Shown: positions 1,884 to 31,545, counted from the stretch's first letter. The stretch: 37,588 nucleotides of DNA from a virus (IMGVR_UViG_2563366827_000004:1-37588); one strand, 5' to 3'. Numbers and translations are program-made. The notes: generated from the sequence alone by a model not told the origin.

Positions 1884-3731
1884 TTAAAAAAACTCTTTTC
1901 CTGTTGTAAACATGCCTTCGGGAAGACGCGCACCGTTAACTGAAGAAAATATAGGACCATAATATTGCTTGTTATAGCTTTGTTGAAATGAAATATATCC
2001 ACCACCATATCCGTTATCTGACATATTTACTTGCGAAAAATAACAATTAATTGTTGACGCATCAATATCTCTAAACTGCTGCATGAATCCGCATTGGCCA
2101 ACAACAACATCACCATCATCTTCTTTTTTTGTTAAAATAGGAAGGTGAATCCAGTTAAAATTCCTTGCGCTCGTAGCCATATGTGTATACACGCGCTCGC
2201 AAATAATATCATCACCAGATGTTTTATTTATTGCATAATTTGTCACGTTTGCTCCATCGCCAAATATAGTTTCAGCAACATAGCTATATGTAGATGACGA
2301 AACTGTAAGCGTTGATGCTGTATGTAGTGTTACATGCCTTGATAAGAGCAATTTAGGAGCATAACCAGAATCAAGGTTAAAGGATGCATTTTCTGTCCTC
2401 AACCTTTGAAGAAAATCACTATGACCACCATGGTATGTACCGAAGAACTTTCCAGTTGATAATTCTTTTGCAGCAAACTCTGTTGCTCCATTCCCACCGA
2501 AGTAATATGAAGGCCCCCCATTCACAAAAGGAGTTATTGTTGCTATAAAATTGTCATAATCTAGTAATTCACAACATCCAAGGCTAAAAACGTTTAGCCC
2601 AACGAGATTTGCAGGTTGAAGCGTTGTCGTATCTGTATTTTCAACTTTAAGATACCAAGTTCCTCCAAGTCCATTTATTTCAATATCAATAGGAAGTGGT
2701 GGCTGACCACCTGGTAATATTTTTGTGTCAACGATCTTTTGCGTTGTCCAGTCAGTGTTGTTTCTGCTTATTGATATTGTTACTGACTTACTTGATGCAT
2801 TAGAGCATGCAAGTCTGACATGCGCTATGCTATTTGTTAACATATATGTTACATAAGCGTTTGTGGAAATTGAATAAACTTGAGGTGTGTTAAGGGTGAA
2901 ATCACCTTGTTCTGTTTCCGCGTGTATAGCGTCATCTGTTTTAGAAAAGCCATACAATGTACTTATTTGAGATTCAGTAAATGAAGATAGGGAGACGCCA
3001 GTGTCACTTTTTGTATGTGGTGATAATTTTGCGATAACTGCATCACTTACCATATATACACTTCCAGGCCTAAAAGGTGATGCCCCGCCATAGTTATTCG
3101 AGTCTGATGGTGAAACCTCATTTGTTACTCTATGAGAAATATATTTTCCTTTCCCATGACATCTTTTACTTATAATATAAAAGTCATTAGAATTTTCATC
3201 TTTGACTATTGCTTTTATGTGTGTTGTTATTGTAGGTGATGTTGGGGGGATGATTGATGTCACAAAGTTAACATCTATAGATTTTCGCACATTAATAAAT
3301 TCATCATCTATACTAGTAATTTTATCTTTTAACGTTCCATCTTCATATCCAATATTTTCAGTCCCATCAGGACCTGCGAGAGACTTTGATAGTTGATCCG
3401 GGTCATACTTCAGAACATTCGGAAAATAGAACTGCTGCGCACCATACGCATCATAAACAGCCATAGAGTGGCCTTGCACGGTTACAAACTTGGCAATCTG
3501 TCCGTTATATACCGGATATCCAGAAGCGTTAATGATGATTGGTTGCGAAACAGGAACGTGAGAACCGTCTTCATTTTCCACATAAACCTGAATCTGGTTT
3601 TCATGATTTACCGGGTCAGTGTCAATTTTACCGATATAAATTTTACCATTAGCTACGGCTTTAAAAGAACGAGCCATAGTGAAGAGTTGCGAAGGCATTC
3701 CTATAACCACATTTGGTGTTATATTAGTCAT
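1884..3731 (-). CDS. Tailspike protein with P22 gp9-like N-terminal head-binding domain and divergent receptor-binding body
   Basis: From the internal Met at 3731 the first ~110 aa (MTNITPNVV...RSFKAVANGKIYIGKIDTDPVN...VQGHSMAVYDA...VLKYDPDQ) closely match the recalled P22 tailspike N-terminus. GGA RBS upstream. The rest does not resemble P22. Confidence 0.85.
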   Translation of the reverse strand: MTNITPNVVIGMPSQLFTMARSFKAVANGKIYIGKIDTDPVNHENQIQVYVENEDGSHVPVSQPIIINASGYPVYNGQIAKFVTVQGHSMAVYDAYGAQQFYFPNVLKYDPDQLSKSLAGPDGTENIGYEDGTLKDKITSIDDEFINVRKSIDVNFVTSIIPPTSPTITTHIKAIVKDENSNDFYIISKRCHGKGKYISHRVTNEVSPSDSNNYGGASPFRPGSVYMVSDAVIAKLSPHTKSDTGVSLSSFTESQISTLYGFSKTDDAIHAETEQGDFTLNTPQVYSISTNAYVTYMLTNSIAHVRLACSNASSKSVTISISRNNTDWTTQKIVDTKILPGGQPPLPIDIEINGLGGTWYLKVENTDTTTLQPANLVGLNVFSLGCCELLDYDNFIATITPFVNGGPSYYFGGNGATEFAAKELSTGKFFGTYHGGHSDFLQRLRTENASFNLDSGYAPKLLLSRHVTLHTASTLTVSSSTYSYVAETIFGDGANVTNYAINKTSGDDIICERVYTHMATSARNFNWIHLPILTKKEDDGDVVVGQCGFMQQFRDIDASTINCYFSQVNMSDNGYGGGYISFQQSYNKQYYGPIFSSVNGARLPEGMFTTGKEFF

Positions 3732-27697: not shown

Positions 27698-27892
27698 CTA
27701 TTTGTTTTTCTTGTTGCTTGGGAAAGGACGAACTTCCTCTCCAATCACACTGCCATCAGGCTTTACCGTAACCATAATGTTACGGCCTGCCAGAATGGCC
27801 TTGCTGATAGCGCACTGGATTACACCAAAGTCACTGGCTGCTTTAGCCTGTCCATGGATTTTGGCGTAATCGGCAAGTGTCATTCGAATCAT
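27698..27892 (-). CDS. cro: Cro repressor
   Basis: [62 protein letters not shown] aligns with recalled lambda Cro; ATG 27892 sits 6 nt after GGAGA. Confidence 0.9.
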
Positions 27893-27921: not shown

Positions 27922-27992
27922 AGAATACTACAGGTATTCAAAGCAATCAATACTTAGGGTATTTTTAGTTTAAGTACCTTAGCTATTAGAAT
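27922..27992. promoter_or_regulatory. OR operator region with divergent pR and pRM
   Basis: Palindromic sites AATACTACAGGTATT (27924-27938), AATACTTAGGGTATT (27949-27963) and a degenerate third (about 27972-27987). Minus-strand pR: -35 TTGATT, 17 bp, -10 TATTCT. cI ATG has no SD, so probably leaderless from pRM. Confidence 0.65.
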
Positions 27993-27998
27993 TAAGCT

Positions 27999-28715
27999 AT
28001 GGAAAATAAAAAATCACTGACGACAGAACAGCTGGAAGACGCTAAGCGGCTTAAGGCTTTGTATGAGTCAAAAAAGAAAGAATTGGGAATAACCCAATAC
28101 TCAATCGCTGATGAACTGGGTATCACCCAAGGAGCGGTAGGGCATTATCTTAATGGCAGAAATGCGCTAAACGTTGAGGTTGCATCTGGTTTTGCACGAT
28201 TGTTGCAAGTCTCAATTGCTGATTTTAGCCAGTCAATTGCTGCCAAGGTTGCAGAACAGGCAGAAAGCCTTAAGAGCGATGCCAACGTAAGGTATGCAGG
28301 GGAATACAGAGCAGGAAAGAGGTATCCGGTGTTAAGCAGTATCCAGGCTGGCTCGTGGTGTGAAGCATGCGAACCATACACCATTAAAGACATAGATGTT
28401 TGGCTTGAGTCTGACGCGCATATTCAAGGTAATGCGTTCTGGCTTAAAGTGGAAGGTGATTCAATGACGGCACCGGTTGGGTTAAGCATTCCAGAGGGAA
28501 CATTCGTTCTTTTCGATACCGGAAGGGAGGCGATCAACGGCAGCTTGGTCATAGCAAAACTTTCTGACTCTAACGAAGCAACATTCAAGAAGCTGATAAT
28601 CGACGGCGGAAATAAATACCTCAAGGGACTTAATCCTGCATGGCCTCTCGTGCCAATCAATGGAAACTGCAAGATTATAGGCGTTGCAATTGAGACAAAA
28701 CTCAGACTGGTTTGA
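27999..28715 (+). CDS. cI: CI repressor (lambda-CI-like, LexA-type autocleaving C-terminal domain)
   Basis: 238 aa; aligns with recalled lambda CI along its length (TQEQLEDA.RLKA.YE.KK.ELG...FWL.VEG.SMTAP...FTFKKLI.D) but the HTH recognition-helix region differs. Confidence 0.9.
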   Translation: MENKKSLTTEQLEDAKRLKALYESKKKELGITQYSIADELGITQGAVGHYLNGRNALNVEVASGFARLLQVSIADFSQSIAAKVAEQAESLKSDANVRYAGEYRAGKRYPVLSSIQAGSWCEACEPYTIKDIDVWLESDAHIQGNAFWLKVEGDSMTAPVGLSIPEGTFVLFDTGREAINGSLVIAKLSDSNEATFKKLIIDGGNKYLKGLNPAWPLVPINGNCKIIGVAIETKLRLV

Positions 28716-28733
28716 TCACGCAAGGGGGCGCTT

Positions 28734-29102
28734 ATGGTTGGAACCGCTATAGCAAGCTTTTTTGGGATGTTGGCAATCTCGACAATTTACGGCTTAGCGC
28801 ATGCTTTTATTGCGAAATCTCTATCAGAAAAAATAAGCCAGGCTTGGGCGCATAGATCAGCTCGTTTCATGATTCTGGTGATCATAGCAATACAAGGGAT
28901 ATCTGCATTTATCCTCTATGGATCAAGCTTATACCTATTGTATCAAGGCGCGACATTTACGCCTTACACCAGTGATTACGGAACTCTATACGATGGTAGT
29001 GAAGACATCACTGTGGCTTGGATCGTCTTTGGTTTATCTATGGCCGTGTCTGTTGTAGCAGACATCATTAAGGTAATTCTCGTCTTAACCTTCGCTGACT
29101 AA
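28734..29102 (+). CDS. Hypothetical 3-TM membrane protein, rexAB-position gene
   Basis: 122 aa; AGGGGG RBS 5 nt upstream; starts 18 bp after the cI stop; three hydrophobic segments (about aa 2-27, 45-70, 92-120). Confidence 0.7.
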   Translation: MVGTAIASFFGMLAISTIYGLAHAFIAKSLSEKISQAWAHRSARFMILVIIAIQGISAFILYGSSLYLLYQGATFTPYTSDYGTLYDGSEDITVAWIVFGLSMAVSVVADIIKVILVLTFAD

Positions 29103-29233
29103 CCTATAATCCCGGCAGCAATAGCTATCGGGATCCACTTCACATATCCCGCATAAAAAGCACTGAACAAGCAGACACCGAAAAAATAAATATCCTTTGT
29201 ATTCATTTGCTTATCATTATTTCATCAAAAATA

Positions 29234-29275
29234 AATACCTTGGGTATTTACACAATAAAATACCTACAGTATTCT
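29234..29275 (+). promoter_or_regulatory. OL operators and pL promoter
   Basis: AATACCTTGGGTATT (29234-29248) and AATACCTACAGTATT (29259-29273), same palindrome family as OR; -35 TTTACA (29247-29252), 17 bp, -10 TATTCT (29270-29275). Confidence 0.6.
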
Positions 29276-29469: not shown

Positions 29470-29769
29470 ATGACAGTAGTCATTACATATCTGGCTGACG
29501 ATAACGCCAGAAATCGCCGCAGAGCACGCAGACAGGCTCAACGTGAACAGGCGATGCAAGAACAGCGACTGGCGCGAAAAATTGCGCTAAAGCTCTCTGG
29601 TTGCGTCAGAGCGGATAAAGCAGCATCACTCGGAATCCTTCGCTGCAAGAAGGCAGATGAAGTCGAGAGTAAACAGAATCGTATTTACTACCGCAAGCCA
29701 CGCAGTGAAATGGGTGTGACTTGTGTTGGTCGCCAGAAAATGAAATTAGGCAGCAAACCACTTATTTGA
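29470..29769 (+). CDS. N: N-like antitermination protein
   Basis: 99 aa, first gene after pL/nutL, GGAGG RBS, N-terminal arginine-rich motif DNARNRRRARRQAQREQ. Confidence 0.7.
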   Translation: MTVVITYLADDNARNRRRARRQAQREQAMQEQRLARKIALKLSGCVRADKAASLGILRCKKADEVESKQNRIYYRKPRSEMGVTCVGRQKMKLGSKPLI

Positions 29770-29780
29770 GAGGAATTAAT

Positions 29781-30404
29781 ATGTCATCAATCCGCTTAAC
29801 TACGAGAATGAAAGAGGAAATCGCTCGTAACGCTTTAATTAAGTCTGGGGTTTTCACTGAACTTGAAGAAGTAACAAAGTTAAAGAACCAGCTTGCACTT
29901 GACGCCAGAGTTATTGCGTTTGGCGGTAAAAAGAAAACTGAGGAAGTGGATCGGTTATCATCCAAGTTAGCAGCTATAAGTGAAGAACTTGAGAAGATGG
30001 GATGTTCATTTTACTCATGCGATGTTCGTTCTGCTTCGATTTATCTGACTGTATCTGGAAGAAGGGTTGGCTGGCATTCATACGGAAAAGACGGCAACGG
30101 TGAAGATATATTGCTCCCCACCCCAGAAAAAGATAAATGCATGTTTGACGCAGAACACGAAATAACAAAAAGGTTTGATGAAATCTGCGCATTGCAACAA
30201 AAACTTGAAGCCAAGAAAAAGGATATCGAATCAAATGTATGGGCTGCTTTGAACTCAGTCACAACAGTTAAGCGACTTATTGAAGTTTGGCCTGAAAGCA
30301 AAGAATTGCTACCAAAAGAAGCAGATAAAGCAAGTACAGCACTTCCTGCTTTACGGGTAGAAGATTTGAATAAGATGATTGGACTTCCTTCCGAGGCCGC
30401 ATAG
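29781..30404 (+). CDS. Hypothetical 207-aa protein co-transcribed with N
   Basis: ATG at 29781 with GAGAGGAA RBS, 12 bp after the N stop; soluble, no recognised motif. Confidence 0.7.
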   Translation: MSSIRLTTRMKEEIARNALIKSGVFTELEEVTKLKNQLALDARVIAFGGKKKTEEVDRLSSKLAAISEELEKMGCSFYSCDVRSASIYLTVSGRRVGWHSYGKDGNGEDILLPTPEKDKCMFDAEHEITKRFDEICALQQKLEAKKKDIESNVWAALNSVTTVKRLIEVWPESKELLPKEADKASTALPALRVEDLNKMIGLPSEAA

Positions 30405-30576: not shown

Positions 30577-31545
30577 ATGAGTGAAGTAACAGATTTAGTT
30601 GTTATTGAAAAAGCAAATGCAATGACTGTATTTCAGTCTGCCGACCAGATTGAAGAAATCCTTCAAAAGGTTGAACGTGAAGTTATGTCCTTTGTGCCTG
30701 ATATCACAACGGCAAAGGGCAGAAAGGAGATCGCTTCTCTGGCGTATAAAGTTGCGCAAACGAAAACATATCTCGATGGTCTTGGAAAAGACCTTGTTGC
30801 TGAACTGAAGGAAATTCCAAAGCTAATTGATGCCAACCGCAAGACAGTGCGTGATCGCCTTGATGAGCTGAAAGCCAAGGCACGCCAGCCTCTTACTGAT
30901 TATGAGGAGGAGCAGGCGCGGATTAAAGCCGAAGAAGAGGCTAAGGCAGCAGCTGAAGCTCTCGCAAAGCAAATTGAGTCTGACCATGAAATAGCGATTT
31001 TGATGGATCGCGAATTTGACCGCCAAAGAGAAGAGGCAAGACTCAAAGCGGAGCAGGAAAAGCGAGAGCATGAAGAACGCTTAAAAAGAGAAGCTGAAGA
31101 GAAAGCCAGAGCAGAAGCCGAAGCAAAGGCAAAAGCCGAAATTGAAGCAGCAGCAAGGCGAGAAGCAGAGGCTAAGGCCGCAGCGGAACGTGCAGAGCGT
31201 GAACGCATTGAAGCCGAGCAACGAGCACAGCGCGAAGCAAAAGAGGCAGCAGAACGGGCTGAAAGAGAAAAGCAGGCGGCAATTGAAGCAGAACGCCGAA
31301 AAGCACAGGAGGAGGCAGAACGAATCCGGCGCGAGGCTGAAGCAAAAGAGCAAGCCAGAATAGCAGAAGAAAAAAGAATCAAGGACGAAGAAGAGCGTAG
31401 AGCAAAGGATAAAGCTCACCGGAAAGAAGTAAATAACAAAATACTTGCTGACCTTATCAAGGTTGGCGCATCAGAAGATGTTGCTAAAAATATCATAACA
31501 GCCATCGTAAAAGGCGAAGTATTCGCAACAAAAATAACCTACTAA
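30577..31545 (+). CDS. Hypothetical protein with a long E/R/K/A-rich helical repeat region
   Basis: 322 aa; about 150 central residues are almost only E, A, R, K, Q; globular-looking N- and C-termini; GGAGG RBS. Confidence 0.7.
   Translation: MSEVTDLVVIEKANAMTVFQSADQIEEILQKVEREVMSFVPDITTAKGRKEIASLAYKVAQTKTYLDGLGKDLVAELKEIPKLIDANRKTVRDRLDELKAKARQPLTDYEEEQARIKAEEEAKAAAEALAKQIESDHEIAILMDREFDRQREEARLKAEQEKREHEERLKREAEEKARAEAEAKAKAEIEAAARREAEAKAAAERAERERIEAEQRAQREAKEAAERAEREKQAAIEAERRKAQEEAERIRREAEAKEQARIAEEKRIKDEEERRAKDKAHRKEVNNKILADLIKVGASEDVAKNIITAIVKGEVFATKITY

Follow-up and report, generated by a model that had tools for sequence, protein, structure and literature searches.

What function does a temperate phage keep directly behind its repressor gene? 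Repressor-linked accessory genes are made in every lysogen, and RexAB, Hex and Stk decide which other phages can grow there. The question is raised here by a 37,588-nt stretch of viral DNA (IMGVR_UViG_2563366827_000004:1-37588; hereafter the window) with P22-like structural genes, in which the gene hkaS lies between the repressor gene cI and the left operators. hkaS has been catalogued since 2001 without an assigned function and is missed by the libraries used for finding defence genes. An earlier note on this DNA described it as an unrecognised membrane protein gene in the rexAB slot, with superinfection exclusion as a possible role. The repressor-linked accessory gene is known as a kind; new to that kind is the HkaS family, which appears unrelated to the known members.

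The content of this slot varies across lambdoid phages. In lambda it holds rexA-rexB, between cI and OL on the cI strand, and hkaS takes up the same position in the window, as had been proposed. The slot holds hex in 434, HK446 and Huey; it is empty in P22, with only 38 bp from c2 to OL, and has no credible ORF in Serratia phage OS31. In Erwinia phage vB_EhrS_49, which has a related cI (65% identical), the gene 12 nt after cI (L014, 2730-3332) encodes an unrelated protein of 200 aa, soluble and carrying a TPR motif near its C-terminus, which has no match in PADLOC.

The further claim that lambdoid prophages carry exclusion genes in this slot agrees with this variable content and with the literature, in which exclusion of other phages is the most common role of accessory genes transcribed from pRM, as with RexAB, 933W Stk and 434 Hex (PMC3564112). 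Hex is co-transcribed from pRM and excludes P22, and it also blocks RecA-stimulated repressor cleavage, resulting in lower induction and a more stable lysogen (PMC3564112). Stk is a tyrosine kinase, transcribed with the repressor, that aborts HK97 (PMC3564112). BstA of BTP1 is described as a repressor-adjacent prophage defence protein that localises to phage DNA replication sites (PMC8585504). A different kind of exclusion is represented by SieA of P22, which is small, resides in the inner membrane and prevents the delivery of DNA (PMC10883804).

Identity and conservation of hkaS

The hkaS ORF occupies positions 28734-29102 on the plus strand, starts with ATG and encodes 122 aa, as is evident from the ORF listing and the sequence. 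The cI stop codon TGA (28713-28715) is followed by an 18-nt spacer (28716-28733, +) containing the Shine-Dalgarno sequence AAGGGGG (28722-28728), which ends 5 nt 5' of the hkaS ATG. These features correspond to the strong ribosome binding site and the spacing described in the earlier note. All five subfamilies of the gene retain a spacer of 17-20 nt with an AAGGA-type site. The ORF call is joined by a family match, conservation, hydropathy and an AlphaFold model.

The same gene is annotated in HK620 as hkaS (AAK28867.1, product 'unknown'), the protein being 99.2% identical over 120 aligned residues. It also matches phrog_6534 ('unknown function') over its full length, with residues 1-122 aligned to profile positions 1-122 of 122 (E 2.4e-79). 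Calling the ORF unrecognised was therefore right as to function, for which HK620 and PHROG both give 'unknown', but not as to existence, as both entries were already on record. Sixteen phage records have a match, 15 of them at 97.5-100% identity over 120 aligned residues; the remaining copy, in HF4s, is 91% identical and aligns as two pieces. Among 80 IMG/VR loci the most frequent allele, with T93 and V94, is the one found in the window, and S93 and M94 mark the second most frequent. Homologues drawn from the databases are always labelled 'hypothetical protein', and a literature search returned no paper naming HK620 together with hkaS, a word that on its own is also a herbarium acronym.

hkaS is a genuine gene, far beyond what a chance ORF would present, because all 80 of the viral contigs carry it intact, it is retained in homologues as distant as 52% identity, it shows dN/dS of 0.13-0.22 and it keeps its ribosome site and spacer. 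That it is instead a chance reading frame or a decaying remnant is exceedingly improbable. A few database variants (P0004, P0006-P0009) do have 5' frameshifts or short in-frame deletions, and the split alignment of the HF4s copy points the same way. Against this stand the 80 intact copies, the low dN/dS across saturated synonymous divergence, the conserved ribosome site and spacing, a confidently predicted fold (pLDDT 92) and the occurrence of the identical protein sequence on at least 1000 contigs, so that a non-functional ORF appears effectively refuted by the conservation data. Base composition was also considered as a sign of foreign origin and set aside, as the gap between hkaS (42.3% GC), cI (45.3%) and the window (47.7%) is too small.

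Organisation of the immunity operon

Read in the cI direction, the layout is that of the lambda immunity region. The HK620 annotation, mapped onto the window with an offset of 26399, places cro at 27698-27892 on the minus strand, and PF09048 (Cro) is matched in homologous loci. Both cro and cII are divergent from cI. The right operators OR1 (27923-27939), OR2 (27948-27964) and OR3 (27972-27988) are taken from the same annotation, and the pattern ATAYN5GTATT matches OR1 and OR2, with 0.35 matches expected by chance. Directly after OR3, the hexamer TAGAAT (27987-27992) lies 7 nt before the cI ATG and is likely the -10 element of pRM. This distance suggests that the cI message from pRM is leaderless, as in lambda and unlike hkaS with its strong ribosome site. 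The cI gene (27999-28715, +) encodes a 238-aa repressor with HTH_3 (E 8e-10) and Peptidase_S24 (E 5e-24) domains, which is 99.6-100% identical to the cI of HK620, mEpX2, HK630 and HK140.

The cI stop, hkaS and OL follow one another along the cI strand, and this order recurs in the diverged subfamilies. hkaS is on the same strand as cI, the gap is 18 nt and a consensus scan found neither promoter nor terminator at the junction, so the two genes are probably co-transcribed, in line with the expectation of the earlier note. Judging from this layout, the immunity transcript would consist of cI followed by hkaS as its final cistron, and HkaS would accompany cI whenever that is produced, with pRM as the source in each lysogen and pRE as the source while lysogeny is being established. 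If the cI message is leaderless, the strong ribosome site would favour translation of hkaS.

The statement that the ORF ends just before OL and pL is also borne out, with 85 nt from its stop to the first operator-like site, followed by OL2, OL1 and pL. RNA folding predicts a stable hairpin without a U-tract 7 nt after the stop (29109-29134, +). Hairpins of unrelated sequence occur at the same position in a Salmonella-type (L005) and a K. aerogenes-type (L008) locus, and a related hairpin in another locus (L010). The conserved position suggests that the element is a candidate 3' end or stabilising structure of the cI-hkaS transcript. Further downstream, pattern matching identified the operator-like 17-mer AAATATCCTTTGTATTC at 29188-29204, within the stretch assigned to tIMM in the HK620 record. 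All five diverged modules have this site, at a constant distance of 45 bp upstream of OL2, and for this reason it is probably the true third left operator; the OL3 of the HK620 record maps to 29211-29227 and is unlike every other operator. OL2 (29233-29249, +) and OL1 (29258-29274, +) are supported by both the HK620 annotation and the operator pattern. They are accompanied by pL (29247-29275, +), found by promoter scan and in the HK620 annotation, with a -35 of TTTACA (29247-29252) and a -10 of TATTCT (29270-29275) separated by 17 bp. The first gene of the pL operon encodes the N antiterminator (29470-29769, +; phrog_271, E 3e-36, with a weak Pfam match to N_peptide).

Two further candidates in this region were rejected. 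The operator-like sequence AGATATCCCTTGTATT (28889-28904, -) lies within hkaS and is a near-match to the 29188 site in inverted orientation, but it occurs in the E. coli-type allele only, the other four subfamilies lacking it, and is probably due to chance. A 35-aa hydrophobic ORF on the minus strand (29099-29206), convergent with hkaS and overlapping its stop, has its ATG within the operator-like site, is reduced to about 10 codons in L005-L007, has no intact counterpart in L008 or L010 and matches no family in Pfam, PHROG or PADLOC.

Predicted structure and topology

Hydropathy analysis of HkaS gives three peaks, at residues 1-27, 45-63 and 97-119. AlphaFold2, run for the monomer on a shallow seven-sequence alignment, returned a model with mean pLDDT 92.1 and pTM 0.79, consisting of helices at residues 2-29, 31-38 (short and amphipathic), 41-73 and 89-121 with a small hairpin in the 74-88 loop. 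The peaks and the long helices of the model both support the three transmembrane helices and the polytopic character predicted earlier for this protein. Loop 1 contains four basic residues and one acidic residue, whereas the four acidic residues of loop 2 are not accompanied by any basic one. Under the positive-inside rule, such a bias would make loop 1 and the C-terminus cytoplasmic and leave the N-terminus and loop 2 on the periplasmic side. HkaS is predicted to be a three-helix inner-membrane protein with an N-out/C-in topology, which supplies the topology prediction that had been suggested as a check.

On the plus strand the predicted elements are helix 1 (residues 2-27, 28737-28814), a cytoplasmic loop with the short amphipathic helix (residues 28-44, 28815-28865), helix 2 (residues 45-70, 28866-28943), a periplasmic loop with the small hairpin (residues 71-92, 28944-29009) and helix 3 with the invariant C-terminal D..K.ILVLTFAD (residues 93-122, 29010-29099). 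The putative periplasmic loop is 22 residues long, acidic and aromatic. A cleavable signal peptide was considered and rejected: diverged homologues lack the AHA motif that HkaS has at residues 22-24 and the N-terminus is not basic, hence helix 1 is taken as an uncleaved N-out anchor.

Invariant residues fall into three clusters. The first, K33-x4-W38-x-H40-x3-R44-F45, lies in the predicted cytoplasmic loop; the second, S65-x-YLLY-x3-TF-x2-Y78, runs from the last part of helix 2 into the periplasmic loop; and the third, D110-x2-K113-x-ILVLT-x-A, is at the C-terminus. Averaged over pairs of sequences, identity reaches 0.84 in the C-terminal tail and 0.71 in cytoplasmic loop 1, the two best-conserved regions, and falls to 0.45 in the first half of helix 3 and 0.41 in the distal periplasmic loop, the two least conserved.

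A host protein that is itself conserved could dock onto the conserved cytoplasmic elements, a possibility that bears on the idea that HkaS is a lysogenic-conversion factor whose benefit to the host is unrelated to phages. It might, for example, protect against a membrane-damaging toxin such as a colicin that forms pores, help the cell to withstand envelope stress or regulate one of its transporters or sensors. Its apparent constitutive co-expression with the repressor, its small size and predicted inner-membrane location, and its presence in several Enterobacterales genera are all compatible with such a role. The immunity proteins for E1-type pore-forming colicins are of similar build, being three-helix inner-membrane proteins of ~110-115 residues with specificity residing in the helices. 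However, HkaS has no match to colicin-immunity or small-regulator families in Pfam or NCBIfam, no toxin gene is linked to it in the loci examined and the documented cargoes of the slot act on phages or on the repressor. A host benefit of this sort is accordingly regarded as doubtful.

Comparison with known families

Library searches agree with the remark in the earlier note that the protein has no recognisable motif. HkaS has no match above threshold in Pfam and none in NCBIfam, no family at E <= 1 among the 5027 models of PADLOC-DB v2 and nothing at E <= 10 among PDB sequences, and fold searches with its model returned only generic helical bundles. Sub-threshold Pfam matches to Cation_ATPase_C (17.6 bits, cut-off 27.3) and TssN (13 bits) are typical noise from hydrophobic segments and were discarded.

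The note had named RexB, SieB, Imm and Abi families for comparison, and none of these relationships was found, either with Pfam and PADLOC profiles or, for RexB, SieB and Imm, by hhalign (probability of 0.7% at most). Cor, the receptor-blocking exclusion protein of phi80 and N15 that the note also named, gave no match in the Pfam scan. HkaS does not match RexB (PF15968, PDLC02340) at E <= 1, and hhalign gives 0.7% against lambda RexB, which itself matches both models as a control. The same applies to SieB (PF14163; 0.10% against P22 SieB, control E 4e-29), to T4 Imm (PF14373, Imm_superinfect; 0.11%, control E 7e-16) and to HK97 gp15/YebO (PF13974; 0.22%, control E 1e-8). P22 SieA, for which no Pfam model exists, was compared by hhalign (0.28%), as was the class I holin gp13 of P22 (0.45%). 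By these comparisons the HkaS family is an orphan, unrelated to RexB, SieA, SieB, Imm, HK97 gp15 or class I holins. The proven exclusion proteins P22 SieA and 434 Hex are likewise without a Pfam or PADLOC match, so the silence of the libraries says nothing about the function of HkaS.

Likeness to known systems is instead one of position and build. HkaS shares with RexAB the slot and the strand, and RexB is also a small polytopic inner-membrane protein. RexB has four membrane helices and belongs to a two-gene system with a cytoplasmic sensor, whereas HkaS is a single gene product with three. Hex of 434, found also as Sf6 gp38 and in HK446 and Huey, is similarly encoded by a single accessory gene directly after cI. 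It differs in having an N-terminal signal-peptide-like segment, no membrane helices and an unrelated sequence, and hex overlaps the cI stop whereas hkaS starts after an 18-nt spacer. SieA, T4 Imm and HK97 gp15 (164, 83 and 62 aa, versus 122 aa for HkaS) are small phage-encoded proteins of the inner membrane, where they halt the entry of DNA (PMC10883804; T4 imm annotation), and SieA and gp15 are made by prophages. Their genes lie at other sites than hkaS, in the P22 late region, among the early genes of a lytic phage and as an insert among tail genes, respectively. 933W Stk and BTP1 BstA are defence genes beside or transcribed with a prophage repressor; by their published descriptions, they are set apart as a kinase and a DNA-replication-site protein, unlike a small membrane protein.

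Occupation of the RexAB slot also raises the possibility of an abortive-infection effector, a phage-triggered oligomeric pore that depolarises the membrane in the manner of RexB without a RexA-type sensor. Small polytopic proteins with invariant polar residues in or near their helices, here Q54, S65, S106, D110 and K113, could form such a pore, and three helices in a predicted N-out/C-in arrangement are the topology of class I holins. Nevertheless, this reading seems rather improbable, given that HkaS is unrelated to RexB and to the P22 holin, that it has no sensor partner, that it ends in LTFAD without the charged cytoplasmic tail typical of holins and that a pore made constitutively without a trigger would be toxic. 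A RexA partner was looked for in the window and in all related loci, in each of which the slot holds a single gene. A function as a class I holin proper was rejected on the tail and because the gene lies in the immunity operon rather than a lysis cassette, although the predicted topology fits. The only other hint of a holin, to TIGR01593 (holin_tox_secr), came from one homologue and is not significant (E 0.081, 12.9 bits, cut-off 40.2).

Distribution and linkage to the repressor

The 1.6-kb block of cro, cI, hkaS, OL/pL and N is 98.5-99.3% identical among phages with different virions. Its carriers include HK620 (P22-like), HK630 (lambda-like), mEpX2 (HK97-like), HK140, phi296, phi367 and two Stx2c phages, phi296 and phi367 being classed in their records as Traversvirus (Sepvirinae) and isolated on an EHEC host. 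As the same module is found in phages with unrelated virions, its function goes with lysogeny and immunity and not with the type of particle.

Of 5426 complete E. coli genomes, 146 (~2.7%) carry hkaS, always on the chromosome. A query spanning cI and hkaS is covered in full in the same 146 genomes; hence no E. coli genome among the 5426 searched has this cI without hkaS. In IMG/VR, where all 80 copies are intact, hkaS follows cI in each of the 79 loci that reach far enough upstream. The gene has been recorded from E. coli, Salmonella enterica, Enterobacter hormaechei, E. cloacae and E. ludwigii, Klebsiella aerogenes and Hafnia paralvei, and its E. coli carriers include Stx-converting phages. 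Contigs of four diverged subfamilies, with HkaS at 83, 61, ~57 and 52% identity, keep the order cro, cI (238-254 aa), hkaS, N. The family as a whole comprises 12 clusters among 5.8 billion proteins, and a profile search of 1.84 billion representatives found two at E <= 0.001, one of them a fragment, both from the family itself. An Enterobacter-type locus (L101) has a gap of ~655 bp between hkaS and N (2870-3524), compared with ~370 bp in the window, in which no gene was called; extra unannotated content is possible there.

Outside this clade, the closest cI proteins have 71-62% identity and no hkaS beside them, and hkaS was never seen apart from the one cI lineage in the E. coli genomes, the IMG/VR loci or the diverged subfamilies. 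This distribution indicates that hkaS was acquired once and then kept by a single repressor lineage.

Such strict and ancient co-inheritance with one cI/cro/operator lineage, contrasting with cI relatives of 71% identity or less that have no hkaS, would be expected if HkaS modulated the lysis-lysogeny switch or prophage stability, with exclusion absent or secondary. It might damp spontaneous induction, or act on the membrane proteins FtsH/HflKC and hence on the stability of cII and cIII. The most conserved surfaces of HkaS are predicted to be cytoplasmic, expression from pRE would supply the protein exactly at the time of the decision and 434 Hex provides a precedent in the same slot, lowering induction from pRM expression by its block of RecA-stimulated cleavage (PMC3564112). 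Such a role is nonetheless judged unlikely. With only ~17 and 13 cytoplasmic residues, HkaS makes an improbable partner for a DNA-bound repressor or RecA, it has no similarity to Hex, with its signal peptide and lack of membrane helices, and linkage over ~1.1 kb is explicable by descent alone.

Selection on hkaS and cI

Most pairs of loci are saturated at synonymous sites and dN/dS was taken from unsaturated pairs only. Between the window and a Hafnia-type locus (dS ~0.7) it is 0.13 for hkaS and 0.03 for cI, and a second usable pair gives 0.22 for hkaS. In deeper pairs dN is 0.34-0.42 for hkaS versus 0.08 for cI. At the protein level, identity is 86-95% for cI and 79-92% for Cro at loci where it is 52-83% for HkaS. 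The 80 E. coli-type loci contain 24 protein alleles of HkaS, compared with 6 of cI, which is twice as long, and every change is conservative. HkaS is therefore maintained by purifying selection, yet evolves 4-5 times faster than cI. This rate is compatible with an arms race and also with a general tolerance of membrane helices for hydrophobic swaps.

Proposed function of HkaS

The reading favoured here, at a probability of roughly 0.4, is that HkaS is an inner-membrane factor, expressed in the lysogen, that excludes other phages. It would act on heteroimmune phages at the cytoplasmic membrane, and a block to genome entry of the kind exerted by P22 SieA, T4 Imm or HK97 gp15 is favoured over an abortive-infection pore because HkaS lacks both a sensor partner and a charged tail, and nothing indicates what would keep a constitutive pore closed.

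Several lines of evidence argue for exclusion. The layout, with hkaS on the cI strand after an 18-nt gap and a strong ribosome site and before the hairpin and left operators, is that of an accessory gene of the immunity operon. Linkage to cI holds in 146/146 genomes, 79/79 IMG/VR loci and all five diverged subfamilies. The gene is maintained while changing faster than cI in both dN and allele number, and the most variable parts of the protein, the distal periplasmic loop and the first half of helix 3, are those that an incoming phage would meet. The module is independent of virion type, the slot has precedents in RexAB, 434 Hex and 933W Stk, all transcribed with the repressor, and a known analogue exists in P22 SieA, likewise small and located in the inner membrane, where it prevents DNA delivery (PMC10883804).

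Other observations count against exclusion. The best-conserved parts of HkaS are predicted to be cytoplasmic (0.71 and 0.84), which a conserved intracellular partner would explain at least as well as phage recognition in the periplasm would. No homology was found to any exclusion or defence family searched, and the fast evolution need not mean an arms race given the tolerance of membrane helices. Moreover, defence genes of this sort usually hop between contexts, whereas hkaS has been seen in one cI lineage only.

A more specific and more speculative form of the exclusion hypothesis is that HkaS is the first member of a new family of anti-phage factors, each a single protein of the inner membrane, that intercept the membrane-inserting ejection or tape-measure proteins of heteroimmune phages on arrival and so stop genome translocation. 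Recognition would take place within the membrane or on its periplasmic side, in a manner comparable to the interception of pore-forming domains by colicin immunity proteins. Specificity would depend on the periplasmic hairpin and helix 3, which evolve fast, and a conserved host partner would be bound by the cytoplasmic loop and the C-terminal tail, which are invariant. This proposal is doubtful in its particulars.

An exclusion role would not surprise a specialist, but if correct it would add a new family acting at the level of the membrane. A lysogen-stability phenotype would instead reveal a membrane input into the lysis-lysogeny switch, and either outcome would explain why hkaS is retained with one repressor lineage. 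The gene is readily testable, as the mEpX2 record lists an E. coli K-12 host and HK630 and HK140 come from classic E. coli collections.

Neighbouring genes in the pL operon region

Directly after N, positions 29781-30404 (+) encode a full-length Nmad5 protein (PF18757, 'nucleotide modification associated domain 5', E 6e-71; phrog_1965). HK620, HK630 and mEpX2 have other genes at this position. Further along, a 322-aa ORF (30577-31545, +) without a Pfam match contains a central, very charged stretch rich in Glu, Ala, Lys and Arg, which is coiled-coil-like.
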